In this document: positions 59,770-63,996 of the stretch, piece after piece
How positions within the stretch are numbered: position 1 is the stretch's first letter
How the letters are laid out: the number at the start of each line of letters is the position of its first letter
DNA from: Myxococcales bacterium
Lineage (GTDB): Bacteria; Myxococcota_A; Polyangia; Haliangiales; Haliangiaceae
DNA: 64,000 nt
Assembly (NCBI GenBank): GCA_016707895.1
Contig: JADJGV010000034.1
Coordinates: 821,625 to 885,624 of the forward strand
Reading direction: 5' to 3'
Notes under the pieces: model-generated
What the model was told of the DNA's origin: nothing
Database searches by the model: none
The model's input: only the letters and a program-made list of their open reading frames with translations
Translations under genes and position numbers: made by a program

Positions 59770-59905
59770 GCGCGCCGCGATCGAACACGCCGCGCGGCGG
59801 ATCAGTTCGGCATGCAACGCGACGCCGAAGCCGGTGGCGCGGTCCTTGGGGACCGCCGGGCCGGCCAGGTCGACGTGGCGCCAGCGGCGGCCGGCGGTCG
59901 CGCCG
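59770..59905 (-). repeat. Diverged (~90% identical) copy of the last ~38 codons plus ~25 bp downstream flank of pepA (62516..62655); the stop codon is mutated
   Basis: Nucleotide alignment to the pepA 3' end. The translation is DEFGATAGRRWRHVDLAGPAVPKDRATGFGVALHAELIRRAA. A third short copy lies at 60527..60560. Confidence 0.75.
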
Positions 59906-59911
59906 AACTCG

Positions 59912-60502
59912 TCACGACGACGTGACCTCGCCCTCGGCGTCGAGGAAGTACGCGTTGCCGGCCTGGACGATGAAGCTGCCCTCGTCGATCCAGTCGCGCA
60001 CGGCCTCGAGATCCTCGGGCGAGGCATCCGGATTCGCGCCCACGGCGTCGTCGTGCAAGTGGAACGGGAACGGCACCACGGCGTAGTGCCACAGGTCGGG
60101 GTGGATGAACGCGAGCATCGGCGCGCTCCCGACGTGGAGAAAGCCGATCTCGTCGGACAGCAGGTCGAGCAGCGCCTCGCCGTCGTCGAGCAGCTCGGCG
60201 TCGGCGTGGATCGCGCGCGCCGTCACCGTACCGTCGCGGTGGGACACGACGACGTTGAGCGGGGCCTGGTCGATGCCGGACAGCCGCGGCACGCCGACGA
60301 AGACGAGCGTCGGCAGGCCGTCGCCGCTCGCGCCGGCGAGCCATCCGTAGGCCTCGCTCGTCTGCACCAGGTAGCGCCGCGCCGGATCGACGAACTGCGC
60401 CACGGTGGCGACGTCCATGCCGAGCCGCTGCGCGATCGCCGGTGCGTCGTACGCGCGCAGGTCGAGCTTCTCGAGGAACGCCTTGTCGAGAAACCAGGTC
60501 AC
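59912..60502 (-). CDS. Hypothetical protein (196 aa)
   Basis: Clean frame MTWFLDKAFLEKLDLRAYDAPAIAQRLGMD... It is flanked by pepA-3' fragments. Confidence 0.55.
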   Translation of the reverse strand: MTWFLDKAFLEKLDLRAYDAPAIAQRLGMDVATVAQFVDPARRYLVQTSEAYGWLAGASGDGLPTLVFVGVPRLSGIDQAPLNVVVSHRDGTVTARAIHADAELLDDGEALLDLLSDEIGFLHVGSAPMLAFIHPDLWHYAVVPFPFHLHDDAVGANPDASPEDLEAVRDWIDEGSFIVQAGNAYFLDAEGEVTSS

Positions 60503-60764
60503 GAACGGAGTCTAGAACGCGGGTCGCGCGATCGCGCCGCGCGGCGGACCAATTCGGCGAGCCGCCGCAGCCGATGCGCGTGTCGGTCCCGCAGCCGGGC
60601 CGCGAGCTTCTCGGTGTGCGGTCGAGCTCGTCGTCGGTGTGGATCGTCGCGATCGCGCACCGGCGCCGTGGTCGCGACCGAGGTCATGGCGGCGGCGGCG
60701 AGCTGCCCGAGCTTCGCGATGGTCCGCGGCGGCGAGTCCAGCACGTCGGTGTCGACCGACGACG

Positions 60765-61397
60765 TCAACCGGCGGGTGGCGCGGCGGCTCGCCCGAGGTA
60801 GCGCACGACGAGCTCGATGAGCTCGGCGCGGAAGCCGGGCTCGTCGAGCAACGCCGGCTCGTCGACCACCGCCGCCTCGATGACCCGCTCGACCGCGTGG
60901 ACCGCGATCCACGCCATCAGCCCGTGGGGGCCGGGCCGGACGTCGTCGCGGCGGGTCATCGCGGCCGCGACCTCGCGGCGCACGGTGCGGTCGACCTCGT
61001 CGCTGACCGGCGCGGTCCAGCTCGGCGGCACCTGGCGGCGGATCGCCTGGCGCAGGCCGATGCCCCCCAGCTCGCCGAGCAGCGCGTCGATGATGCGGCC
61101 GGCCACCTCGGCCAGCGGCGCGTCGCCGGCGGTGACCAGGATCTGGACCGCCAGCGCCTCGGTGCGGCGCTCCAGCCGGCGGGCCAGCTCGGCGAGCAGC
61201 GCGTCCTTGTTGGGGAAGTACTGGTACAGCGAGCCGATGCTGACGCCGGCGCGCTCGGCGACCTGGTTGGTCGTGAAGCCGTCGAGGCCGCGCTCGTCGA
61301 GGACCTGGCTGGCGGCGGCGAGGACCGACTCGATGATGTCGGCGCCGGCGCGGGTGGACGGCGGCTTGCGGGGCGCGATCCGGCGGTCGCGAGGCAC
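60765..61397 (-). CDS. TetR-family transcriptional regulator
   Basis: HTH FTTNQVAERAGVSIGSLYQYFPNKDALL. It is divergent from a lipoprotein gene. Confidence 0.8.
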   Translation of the reverse strand: MPRDRRIAPRKPPSTRAGADIIESVLAAASQVLDERGLDGFTTNQVAERAGVSIGSLYQYFPNKDALLAELARRLERRTEALAVQILVTAGDAPLAEVAGRIIDALLGELGGIGLRQAIRRQVPPSWTAPVSDEVDRTVRREVAAAMTRRDDVRPGPHGLMAWIAVHAVERVIEAAVVDEPALLDEPGFRAELIELVVRYLGRAAAPPAG

Positions 61398-61447: not shown

Positions 61448-61480
61448 GCCTGCTGCCCGTGGGGCGTGGTACCAGTCGTC

Positions 61481-62497
61481 ATGCGCGTTGCTCTGATCTG
61501 TTTGATGGTCGCGAGCGCGTGCGCCTCGACCGCGTCCCGCGGGACGACGGCGCCGCCGCCGACCCCTCGTCTCGATGTCACGACTGCGCCTCACGAGCCG
61601 GTCGCGCCGCCGTCGCCGTCGCCGCCGCCACCGCCACCGCCGATCGCCGAGGCGCCGGCCTGGGATGCGCCGCCGCCACGGCCGCACGTGGTCGCCGTCC
61701 TCGCCCAGGTCCCCGCGGCTGCGCGGTTCGTCGCCGGGCTCGACGCGGCGCGGCTCGTGCGCGGCCCACTCGCCAGCCGGTTCCAGGGCATGCTGGCCAT
61801 GGTCGGCGTGATGATGCCCGCCGCCTGCGGTGCGGTGACGCTGAGCCAGTTCGACCAGGTGGTCATGGCCGGCGTCGGCACCAAGGGCGATCACGTGGTG
61901 TTCCTGGGGCCGAAATTCGCGGAGCGGAGCACTGCGGATTGCCTGACGGCCGCGACGATGGGGCGCAACGGCGTGACCGTGAAGCGCCGGAAGGCGTTCG
62001 GGACCACCGTGTACTTCGAGGCGGGACCGCAAGCCACCGGCGGCGCGCTCGCCTGGAGCAAGGGCTCGGGGCCGATCGTGGCGGACCACGAGCCGTGGCT
62101 GGCGGCCGCGCTCGATCCCAAGGCGGCCAAGGCCGAGCCCGAGTTGGTCGCCCTGGCCAGCAGCGTCGATCACGGGCGGACGTTGTGGCTCGCCGCGCTG
62201 CTGTCCGAGCAAGACGTGGCCGGCCTCGGCGCGCCGCCGGGGACGTTCAGCGGGCCGTTCGCGTTGCGCCTCGGCGTCGACATCGACGGCGAGGCTGACA
62301 TCGACGTCGATCTAGTGTTCGCGTCCGAGGCCACCGCGGCGCAGGCCGCGGACTACCTGCGCAGCCAGTTCGCCCCGATGCAAGCCGACGGCGGCACGCG
62401 CGTGAGTCTGGGGGTGCACGGCGCCGAGGTGCGGCTGATCCTGCGCTTCGATGCCGCCAGCGTGCAGCGGTTCCTGGCGATGCTGCCCGCGAGCTGA
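61481..62497 (+). CDS. Hypothetical lipoprotein
   Basis: Lipobox LMVASACAS. A Pro-rich linker is followed by a globular domain. Confidence 0.6.
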   Translation: MRVALICLMVASACASTASRGTTAPPPTPRLDVTTAPHEPVAPPSPSPPPPPPPIAEAPAWDAPPPRPHVVAVLAQVPAAARFVAGLDAARLVRGPLASRFQGMLAMVGVMMPAACGAVTLSQFDQVVMAGVGTKGDHVVFLGPKFAERSTADCLTAATMGRNGVTVKRRKAFGTTVYFEAGPQATGGALAWSKGSGPIVADHEPWLAAALDPKAAKAEPELVALASSVDHGRTLWLAALLSEQDVAGLGAPPGTFSGPFALRLGVDIDGEADIDVDLVFASEATAAQAADYLRSQFAPMQADGGTRVSLGVHGAEVRLILRFDAASVQRFLAMLPAS

Positions 62498-62541
62498 GCG
62501 GCGCCGGCGCGCTCGCGCGACCGGCGGCGCGCCGCGACCGA

Positions 62542-63996
62542 TCACGCCGCGCGGCGGACCAGCTCGGCGAGCAGCGCGACGCCGAAGCCGGTGGCGCGAT
62601 CCTTGGGGAACGCCGGGCCGGCGAGGTCGACGTGGCACCAGCGGCGGCCGGCGGTCGCGCCGGCGAGGTGCTCGTAGACGAACTGCGCGGCGCAGCTCGA
62701 CTGCGCGTTGTTGCGATCGGCGACCGAGTTGCGCAGATCGGCGACCGGGCTCCGGAACTCGTGCGCGTACAGCTCGGGCGCGAACGGCAGCGGGTGACAC
62801 AGGTCGCCCGAGGCGCGGCCGGCCGCCAGCGCGTGGGCCTCGAGCGCCGCGTCGTCGCTGACCACCGCGGCGTGGATCACGCCGGTGGCGATGAGCTGCG
62901 CCCCGGTCAGCGTCGCGGCGTCGATGATCAGCGTCGCGCCCAGCTCGCGCGCGGCCCAGCTGACGCCGTCGCCGAGCAGCAGCCGGCCCTCGGCGTCGGT
63001 GTTGTTGATCTCGACGGTCTTGCCCGAGTGCATGCGCAGGATGTCGTCGGGCTTGTAGCTGCGCGCGTCGATCGCGTTCTCGGCGATGCACAAGAGCAAC
63101 GACAGCCGGTAGCTGGGCCGCTCGGCCGCGAGCACGCGGAACGCGCCGAGCACCGCGGCCGCGCCGCCCATGTCGGCCTTCATGCCCTCCATGAAGCCGC
63201 GCTGCTTCAGGTGCAGGCCGCCGGTGTCGAAGGTGATGCCCTTGCCGACCAGCGCGACGTGGCGGTCGGCGTCCTTGGGCCCGACCTGCGCGATCAACAG
63301 CCGCGGCGGCTCGAGCGCGGCCTTGCCGACGCCGTAGATGCCGCCCAGCCCGCGCGCGGCCAGGTCGTCGCCGACGTACTCGATCACCTCGACGCCGTCG
63401 CCGAGCGCGGCCCGGGCCGCGGCCGCCAGCGCCGACGGGTGCAGCTCCGACGGCGGCGTGTCGACGAGGATCGCGGCGTCGCGGGCGCAGCGCACGGTCA
63501 GCTTGGTGCGCGCGTCGGGCGCCACCGGGGCGCCGTCGGGGCCGAACGCGGCGAGGGCGACCTTGACCTTCGACGGCTCGGCCTTGGCGGTGAACGCCGG
63601 GATCGCGCGCGACACGGCGTTGGCGGTGGCCAGGAAGTCGCCGGGCTCGTCGAGCAGCAGCACCACCAGCGCCTTGCCCTTGGCGCCCCACGGCAGGTTG
63701 GTCAGCGCGAACCGGACGCTGTCGGCGCGCGACGGCGCGTTGTAGCGCGACACCGCGTCGGGCAAGACCGCCAGGTGGAGCCAGGTCGGCCCGCCGGCCA
63801 GGGTCGAGCCGAGCGCGCCGCGCAGCCCGGGCTTGGTCCGGGTCGCCAGCTCGCGCAGCAGGTCGGCCCGCTTCTTGTCGAGGAGCCCGCGCGGCAGCGG
63901 GCCCTTGGCGATGCGGGCCGTGGGCGCGACCACGACCAGGTGCTCGAGGCCGGCGGTCGCCAGCTTGCCGGGGGCGGCGAAGGTGAGTTCGATCAT
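62542..63996 (-). CDS. pepA: Leucyl aminopeptidase (M17 family)
   Basis: M17 catalytic-domain motifs (VGKGITFDTGGLHLK, NTDAEGRL, ATLTGA). Length is 484 aa. The start sits at the window edge. Confidence 0.9.
   Translation of the reverse strand: MIELTFAAPGKLATAGLEHLVVVAPTARIAKGPLPRGLLDKKRADLLRELATRTKPGLRGALGSTLAGGPTWLHLAVLPDAVSRYNAPSRADSVRFALTNLPWGAKGKALVVLLLDEPGDFLATANAVSRAIPAFTAKAEPSKVKVALAAFGPDGAPVAPDARTKLTVRCARDAAILVDTPPSELHPSALAAAARAALGDGVEVIEYVGDDLAARGLGGIYGVGKAALEPPRLLIAQVGPKDADRHVALVGKGITFDTGGLHLKQRGFMEGMKADMGGAAAVLGAFRVLAAERPSYRLSLLLCIAENAIDARSYKPDDILRMHSGKTVEINNTDAEGRLLLGDGVSWAARELGATLIIDAATLTGAQLIATGVIHAAVVSDDAALEAHALAAGRASGDLCHPLPFAPELYAHEFRSPVADLRNSVADRNNAQSSCAAQFVYEHLAGATAGRRWCHVDLAGPAFPKDRATGFGVALLAELVRRAA

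Follow-up and report, generated by a model that had tools for sequence, protein, structure and literature searches.

How does a bacterial gene come to be followed by several displaced copies of its own 3' end, with unrelated genes lying in between? The question is raised by a stretch of 64,000 nucleotides from an uncultured Myxococcales bacterium (GenBank assembly GCA_016707895.1, contig JADJGV010000034.1, positions 821,625 to 885,624), here called the window, near the end of which lies pepA, a gene of the M17 leucyl-aminopeptidase family. Same-strand copies of the pepA end, or of the motif just past its stop codon, recur in the flank of the gene (143 nt, 92% identical; 34 nt, 91%; 17 nt, 100%). 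What is seen here is a group of recombination scars, or pseudogene stubs, within a hyperplastic segment of the chromosome; scars of this kind are known and fairly ordinary. As to their origin, we put the chances at about even that DNA of related strains left the copies behind as non-functional scars, through additive recombination anchored by homology. An earlier reading of the letters alone (the sequence-only reading) had taken them for the footprint of site-specific integration at the 3' end of pepA.

The conserved anchor gene of the locus is pepA. The features on which the argument first depends are the gene, its functional end, the longest displaced copy and the spacer behind that copy:

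62542..63996, minus strand: pepA, intact, 484 aa, M17 leucyl-aminopeptidase family (open reading frame; Pfam Peptidase_M17; NCBIfam leucyl aminopeptidase models)
62521..62662, minus strand: repeat copy 1, the functional 3' end of pepA, with the last 39 codons, the stop codon and 21 nt downstream
59763..59905, minus strand: pepA', a displaced piece of the pepA 3' end, now a pseudogene fragment, 92% identical, with the stop codon changed to Cys
59530..59762, no strand: spacer s3, between the stop codon of a gene called X and pepA'; no match by blastn

A repeat search pairs 59770-59905 with 62527-62662 (136 nt, 92% identity, spacing 2757), and a gapped alignment stretches the pair to 59763-59905 against 62521-62662 (143 nt, one 1-nt indel). 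The sequence-only reading had described a copy about 90% identical, in frame and with a mutated stop codon, and this description holds: pepA' has the same orientation as pepA and keeps its reading frame (GATAGRRWRHVDLAGPAVPKDRATGFGVALHAELIRRAAC), the stop codon reads TCA on the plus strand in pepA (62542-44) and ACA in pepA' (59785-87), and the blastn match of the two ends has an E value of 1.6e-53. On the pepA side, its coordinates (62516..62655) were shifted by about 7-11 nt from the true partner, 62527-62662; the other coordinates were as described. The identity is also not that of chance similarity between GC-rich sequences, an outcome that the same reading had allowed for: the top unrelated match in the 64-kb window, on both strands, scores 35 bits, and of the non-self matches to the pepA end, the top five, two of them exact copies of a 17-nt motif, lie within 59.7-62.5 kb on the same strand.

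The layout is found in at least six independent assemblies produced with different assemblers, at 99.8-99.99% identity, and a second strain lineage shows variants of it; because it recurs in this way, an assembly artefact is ruled out. The spacer s3 represents, we infer, the original downstream flank of pepA. Public gene callers annotate a 90-aa gene at 59545-59817 (minus strand), which starts inside pepA', runs across s3 and has no family match; the call is probably spurious.

The polarity of the differences between pepA and pepA' was read codon by codon against outgroups that comprised L171, L170 and more remote genomes. The derived state lies in the fragment at 8 of the 10 coding differences, six of them non-synonymous (stop loss included) and two synonymous; two further synonymous sites are derived in the intact pepA end. 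Relative to pepA, the fragment carries the substitutions C>R, F>V, L>H (a change of two nucleotides), V>I and stop>Cys. Non-synonymous and synonymous differences number 6 : 4 between pepA and pepA' overall, against 1 : 10 when the intact end is compared with L171 across these codons (Fisher p=0.024), and the divergence of the intact end from L171 equals that of the whole gene (about 91% identity), nearly all of it synonymous. This preponderance of derived, mostly non-synonymous changes in the fragment marks pepA' as a neutrally decaying pseudogene, and the functional pepA end would seem, from the same comparison, to bear no sign of foreign origin. The nearest known relative of pepA' is the resident pepA (92%, against 80-86% to L170, L171 and L297), and between strains the fragment collects substitutions at the rate of the flanking non-coding DNA. 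At the C>R site (59879-59881, codon 9 of the fragment), the window and the conspecific strain L172 read CGC; assembly GCA_964269055.1 (L081) reads TGC, like the intact gene, which could reflect either polymorphism or gene conversion from the intact copy.

Between pepA' and pepA lie a second, shorter remnant, three copies of a 17-nt motif and three genes:

60519..60585, minus strand: pepA'', a second, shorter remnant with the last ~9 codons and a mutated stop codon; core at 60529-60562
62518..62534, no strand: pepA-proximal copy of the 17-nt motif CGACCGGCGGCGCGCCG, 8 nt past the pepA stop
61413..61446, no strand: two tandem exact copies of the 17-nt motif, in the interval between the TetR and lipoprotein genes; distal border of the lipoprotein cassette
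61481..62497, plus strand: lipoprotein ORFan with the signal peptide MRVALICLMVASAC; likely start at 61481
60765..61397, minus strand: TetR-family regulator (Pfam TetR_N, TetR_C_15)
59912..60502, minus strand: hyp196, a 196-aa ORFan restricted to Myxococcota, its stop 6 nt from pepA'

Read in the sense of pepA, the order is pepA, motif, lipoprotein gene, two motifs, TetR gene, pepA'', hyp196, pepA', s3 and X; the hypothetical gene and the TetR/lipoprotein pair had been placed between the copies by the sequence-only reading as well, and correctly so. Its third copy of ~30 bp corresponds to the core of pepA'' (60529-60562, 34 nt, 91%, 48.8 bits by blastn), from which a weak extension reaches 60519-60585 (79% over 70 nt). 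This remnant sits 27-38 nt upstream of the start of hyp196 and is identical in L172. The 17-nt motif includes the 12-nt palindrome GCGGCGCGCCGC and occurs in the window at only these three places, the tandem copies falling in the divergent TetR/lipoprotein promoter region. A further candidate, a 27-nt match within the TetR coding sequence (61177-61203, 96%), was discarded, being in our view convergent coding of the common peptide ALLAEL-RR; its 20-mer recurs in several genes. The remnants derive from different sections of the pepA end (62516-62540 for the motif copies, 62539-62572 for the 34-nt copy and 62521-62662 for the 143-nt copy). In the blastn alignments, the three have no identical core in common and the two short ones do not overlap, although decay could have erased a core.

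Strain L172 (GCA_943370995.1; L173-175 likewise) shows the junction next to pepA in another state. It is 96-98% identical to the window overall, with about 0-3% mismatches in genes; the gene order is shared, and there are four differences in structure. In place of the lipoprotein cassette (window 61448-62527), it carries an unrelated 318-aa ORFan (L172 7985-9043), the exchanged pieces measuring 1059 nt in L172 and 1071-80 nt in the window. Both breakpoints of the swap lie inside the 17-nt motif, which in L172 is halved and unduplicated, and a comparison of the ends of the two alternative cassettes revealed no terminal sequence or structure in common. The swap is an exchange of single-gene cassettes at about 98% genome identity. 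Because an unrelated gene occupies the exact pepA-proximal junction in L172, the 3' flank of pepA is a recurrent insertion point. The lipoprotein gene would be the most recent cassette of the window. From the comparison of the two strains and the reconstructed empty site, we infer an older state in which the pepA stop would have been followed by TCGGTCG-CGGCGCGCCGCCGGTCG-TGGCACCATCGCCCC and then by GTG, the TetR start; the TetR gene would thus formerly have stood directly after pepA, and the same 39-nt spacer would have been struck independently in the window and L172 strains.

Decay has also proceeded differently in L172. Just the first ~99 nt of pepA' survive there, the portion around the former stop being overwritten by unrelated sequence; s3 has a 95-nt deletion, and the palindrome upstream of the TetR gene is destroyed. 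These observations bear on the explanation that the pepA-end repeats are functional, either as small RNAs or as regulatory or terminator elements, the latter held out as an alternative by the sequence-only reading itself. The 17-nt motif, with its 12-nt palindrome in the divergent TetR/lipoprotein promoter region, could double as a candidate TetR operator and speaks for such a role. We nevertheless consider this explanation very improbable: an Rfam scan of the repeated sequences gave no match, and terminator/promoter scans of them gave no terminator-like site; the fragment changes at the non-coding rate, its distal third is overwritten in L172 and the palindrome upstream of the TetR gene is lost there; and the motif is found nowhere else in the window. 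Conservation of the fragments does not rise above the strain background.

Genome and metagenome contig scans for pepA provided about 160 loci, in none of which the neighbours of pepA are those of the window. Closer relatives came from protein searches (L169, L170, L171, L176, L297, L298 and L299), and in these, too, pepA never adjoins X, hyp196 or the TetR gene; the closest named relatives are metagenome-assembled genomes (MAGs) of Kofleriaceae. Every lineage sampled at 72-93% pepA identity (L001, L002, L170/L297, L171 and L299) has different genes on both sides of pepA, and homology with the window ends about 15 nt before the pepA ATG and about 24 nt after the stop. As the neighbours differ in every lineage, nothing but pepA itself serves as a shared anchor in this variable neighbourhood. 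The comparison with relatives that had been proposed along with the sequence-only reading shows a variable flank, and it yields no empty site among them. Loss of synteny as complete as that around pepA is unusual for genes so similar.

A duplicated pepA end also occurs in a distant MAG, L024, whose pepA is 54% identical:

L024 1269-1490 and 3081-3302: direct repeats of the pepA end

Here, a second copy of the last 72 codons of pepA with the stop codon (222 nt) lies 1.8 kb downstream and is 98.2% identical to the first. Between the repeats is a 1.6-kb insert with a GC content of 56-60%, against 73-78%, and with two ORFans, for which no database matches and no recombinase were found. The two copies have four differences, all synonymous, as expected for two functional gene-end alleles, which suggests that two such alleles were brought together. 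The part of the sequence-only reading that saw displaced, diverging 3'-end fragments left by serial insertion is borne out by the derived changes of the fragment, by the nested order of the remnants, by the junction gene of L172 and by this recurrence in L024.

Within 12 kb, duplicated-end scars also occur at other conserved genes (X and the 5' end of PALP); with the copies of the pepA end included, the duplications measure 17-949 nt and involve unrelated sequences. The first of these concerns the DUF4261 gene X and its neighbours:

58564..59512 (block; coding sequence 58621-59529), plus strand: intact copy of X, with sharp ends, from 57 nt before the ATG to 17 nt before the stop
56264..56511, plus strand: X', a decayed in-situ copy of X, with 186 nt of promoter and 5' end joined to 58 nt of 3' end
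56512..56677, minus strand: remnant of a terpene synthase gene (5' end and flanks), which is intact in L169 and L298
56671..58437, minus strand: OPT oligopeptide transporter gene, between X' and X
55856..56251, minus strand: DoxX gene, ancestral divergent neighbour of X, with the same adjacency in L169 and L298

The 5' part of X' is 93% identical to X, with ATG>ACG, and its 3' part 91%; the intact X lies 2.3 kb away, beyond the OPT gene, and the duplication originally covered about 949 nt, promoter included. In L169 and L298, the order is DoxX-X-terpene synthase, and DoxX-X' with the terpene synthase stub of the window are collinear with it at 92-97% identity. In contrast, the intact X is 87.9% identical to the X of L169, 83-88% to L169/L298 and 83-93% to X'. 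The 92-97% identity of X' and the 83-88% identity of the intact X to the same two genomes show that the copies are alleles of different lineages and that DNA was imported from relatives; X' is the in-situ, L169-like allele, and the intact X, whose borders at 58564 and 59512 are sharp, is its homeologous counterpart. A simple tandem duplication is rejected for this pair on the same ground, the interior being 83% identical and X' 94.6% identical to L169. In L172, X' retains different parts of X (94.6% to L169, only 83% to the intact X), so that X' must once have been longer and was deleted independently in each strain. The terpene synthase gene is mostly deleted both in the window lineage and in L172.

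The scar at the 5' end of PALP accompanies gene g257 (L081 6898-7671), which is not in L172. In the window lineage, this gene is flanked by a diverged duplication of ~62 nt that consists of the PGA_cap-PALP spacer and the first 7 PALP codons:

L081 6640-6702 and 7715-7780: repeats flanking g257, about 2-3 kb past the end of the window

The single copy in L172 resembles a left/right chimera of both repeats.

The X/X' pair bears directly on a second explanation, in which tandem or dispersed duplication within the genome copied a segment with the 3' end of pepA in it, or even the entire gene, and deletions then reduced the copy, the genes in between being old neighbours. X' indeed shows how a second copy of a whole gene is whittled down by independent deletions in two strains, pepA' is closest to the resident pepA (its identities to L170, L171 and L297 being lower), nearly all of its differences are decay in the fragment, and there is no difference in GC content. 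Against this stand the two lineages of X and X', which are not in-situ duplicates (83% interior; X' 94.6% to L169), and the three nested remnants with a polymorphic junction cassette, which would need several cycles of duplication and deletion ending at gene borders. The homologue of hyp196 in L176 has flanks without pepA pieces, and as for L024, its low-GC insert cannot have been an old neighbour. Overall, intragenomic duplication appears improbable.

A third explanation retains the core of the sequence-only reading: cassettes or islets without an integrase, either trans-mobilised or like cis-mobilisable elements (CIMEs), would serially enter an attachment (att) site at or after the pepA stop, each bringing a replacement 3' end. 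The same-strand remnants nested behind pepA in the expected order agree with it, as does the recurrent insertion point, where the unrelated L172 cassette is of near-equal length and split exactly in the palindromic motif. The 222-nt repeats of L024, with synonymous-only differences around a low-GC insert, resemble a phage attachment site (attP) supplying a functional gene end, and decayed integrase-less elements that keep attL/attR in tandem at the 3' end of a gene have a precedent in CIMEs (PMC5704250).

The expected machinery was not encountered. A Pfam scan of the 30 main open reading frames in window positions 1-48 kb detected no integrase, recombinase or transposase, nor did the called genes of L081/L085, which cover 48.6-64 kb of the window and about 10 kb beyond; the absence of an integrase gene noted by the sequence-only reading therefore extends to these scanned frames. 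Of the integrase families, none had matches in as many as two of the 116 proteins encoded at most 5 kb downstream of pepA at about 50 related loci (25 commonest families, so that a single case could be hidden). No tRNA gene was found in the window, and GC content (0.71-0.78 over 52-64 kb) shows neither a break nor a foreign compositional signature. Integron parts (IntI, attI and attC-like cassette ends) were sought and none found; as to transposons, there is no transposase, there are no inverted repeats at the ends of the lipoprotein cassette, and the duplication lengths (17-949 nt) are not fixed. The cargo gives no hint of a mobile element either: Pfam and PHROG scans of hyp196, the lipoprotein gene, the alternative gene of L172 and g257 returned no match, and no relative of the lipoprotein gene was found in viral contigs. 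The 17-nt motif had just scattered single chance matches in viral contigs that are GC-rich, which is uninformative; tblastx of the spacers gave only GC-rich noise, and blastn no match for s2 or s3. Nuclease and toxin genes were seen at one place in the window only, one for an HNH-endonuclease-domain protein (20161-21660) and, beside it, one for a MazF/PemK toxin (21693-22169); these gave the sole hits with even a loose relation to those sought, and they are unlinked to the repeats. Short-period (12-18 nt) coding tandem repeats occur at 34585-34902 (Lys/Ala/Pro-rich), 18588-18717 and 50667-50799.

Besides the lack of a recombinase and of a compositional signal, site-specific integration is opposed by the remnants, which have differing boundaries and no common core, by the two cassettes at the motif, which lack common terminal features, and by the scars of like design at X and PALP, which use other sequences and 5' ends. 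On these grounds, islands carried by a site-specific integrase and a decayed islet array, as the sequence-only reading proposed, are not upheld, and we regard serial att-site entry in general as rather doubtful. Still less likely is its most specific form, in which the pepA stop region and the palindromic motif are an att site for integrase-less single-gene cassettes moved by a recombinase encoded elsewhere. Such a system would amount to integron-like stacking without attC, in Myxococcota and perhaps Planctomycetota. If true, it would explain why insertion is always proximal, why a cassette was swapped between conspecific strains and how the L024 duplication arose, and the locus would matter much more if a cassette recombinase did act in trans on a pepA site.

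Scars at X and PALP as well as at pepA, together with the absence of a recombinase, a common core and a GC signal, are better accounted for by general recombination than by an att site and an integrase. In homology-anchored additive recombination, DNA of a related strain would enter the cell and pair through a shared conserved gene, here pepA, the donor pepA being followed by other genes. Integration could then take place in two ways. A recircularised fragment might enter by a single (Campbell-type) crossover, or homologous crossing-over within pepA might be paired with an illegitimate join just upstream of where the homology ends. By either route, pepA would be left intact with the new gene or genes next to it, and the older pepA 3' end would be pushed outward with its old flank. 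Three successive events might thus have stacked hyp196, the TetR gene and the lipoprotein gene, and the pieces left behind (143 nt, about 34-70 nt and 17 nt), being redundant, would decay neutrally through substitutions, loss of the stop codon, deletions and overwriting. The same process may have acted at X, where an L169-like segment (DoxX-X-terpene synthase-OPT) would have been added beside the resident X and the extra copy X' would be decaying; the 5' end of PALP, a short way past the window, may be another such case.

The duplicated segments do derive from conserved genes (pepA, the DUF4261 gene X and PALP) that lie beside lineage-variable genes, with lengths of 143 nt for pepA', about 949 nt for X, about 62 nt for PALP and 222 nt for L024. 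In Escherichia coli, a single crossover of recircularised incoming DNA results in locus duplications of 109-950 bp that flank the insert (PMC3240628), a range that agrees with the 143, 222 and about 949 nt but not with the 17 nt of the motif; duplications and merodiploidy triggered by transformation have been described (PMC3784515).

Several points weigh against additive recombination. A donor with hyp196, the TetR gene or the lipoprotein gene beside pepA is found in none of about 170 related loci (the OPT gene likewise), and none of them has the empty site (pepA-s3-X); the sole donor-like order is the DoxX-X-terpene synthase of L169/L298, which fits the X' side. Given these absences, the order of events is a reconstruction, and the identity of the donors and the route of recombination are likewise deduced. 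Alleles of donor and recipient are seen for X/X' and suggested for L024, but cannot be told apart for pepA and pepA'. Classical homology-facilitated illegitimate recombination (HFIR) mostly yields deletions rather than duplications (PMC3240628), and the duplication of the 17-nt motif is too short for a RecA-type crossover and needs an illegitimate join or a staggered break. Finally, additions are always pepA-proximal (three in the window lineage, an independent one in L172 and again in L024), and such constancy hints at a site preference that a dedicated recombinase would explain more directly.

If additive recombination is the correct explanation, the locus is a natural example of how the large, recombining genomes of myxobacteria gain single accessory genes beside anchor genes without mobile-element machinery, each gain leaving behind a pseudogene stub that can be dated and from which the sequence of events can be read. 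Such stubs could then be annotated as pseudogenes, the loss of synteny around pepA even at about 90% identity would be explained, and rates of additive recombination could be estimated in uncultured lineages.

Among known systems, integration of the E. coli prophage e14 and of phage 21 into the 3' end of icd reportedly leaves a displaced icd 3' pseudogene. As at pepA, a coding gene keeps an intact 3' end, and its last tens of codons are repeated in the same orientation beyond the insert; the icd copies are said to differ only synonymously, as the L024 copies do. Unlike the pepA locus, both of these elements bring an integrase of their own and recombine at a defined core; at pepA no integrase, phage genes or shared core were found, and the inserts are single ORFan genes. 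A second parallel is the tandem accretion of CIMEs, derived from integrative and conjugative elements (ICEs) or integrative and mobilisable elements (IMEs), at the 3' end of a target gene, e.g., ICESt1/ICESt3 at fda (PMC5704250). Both cases have tandem stacking with the newer elements nearest the gene. CIMEs, however, have the attL/attR of a known integrase family and an ICE or IME origin, whereas the pepA remnants are unequal and non-overlapping, similar scars lie at the 5' ends of other genes, and no integrase-bearing relative was seen at about 50 pepA loci.

Integron arrays resemble the pepA locus in that single genes, promoter-less or small, are stacked at one junction with the newest nearest the fixed site, and in that cassettes are swapped between strains; in contrast to integrons, the pepA locus has no IntI, attI or shared attC-like imperfect palindromes, and its cassettes are of mixed orientation. 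In the case of Campbell-type integration and HFIR, the comparison is between laboratory events with plasmids or PCR fragments and events at pepA that are deduced from natural genomes, and the 17-nt duplication at pepA is below the length expected for a homologous crossover, unlike Campbell-type products. Otherwise the two are alike: a homologous anchor is used and duplicated over 10^2-10^3 bp, no recombinase of the element is needed, and the spare copy decays.

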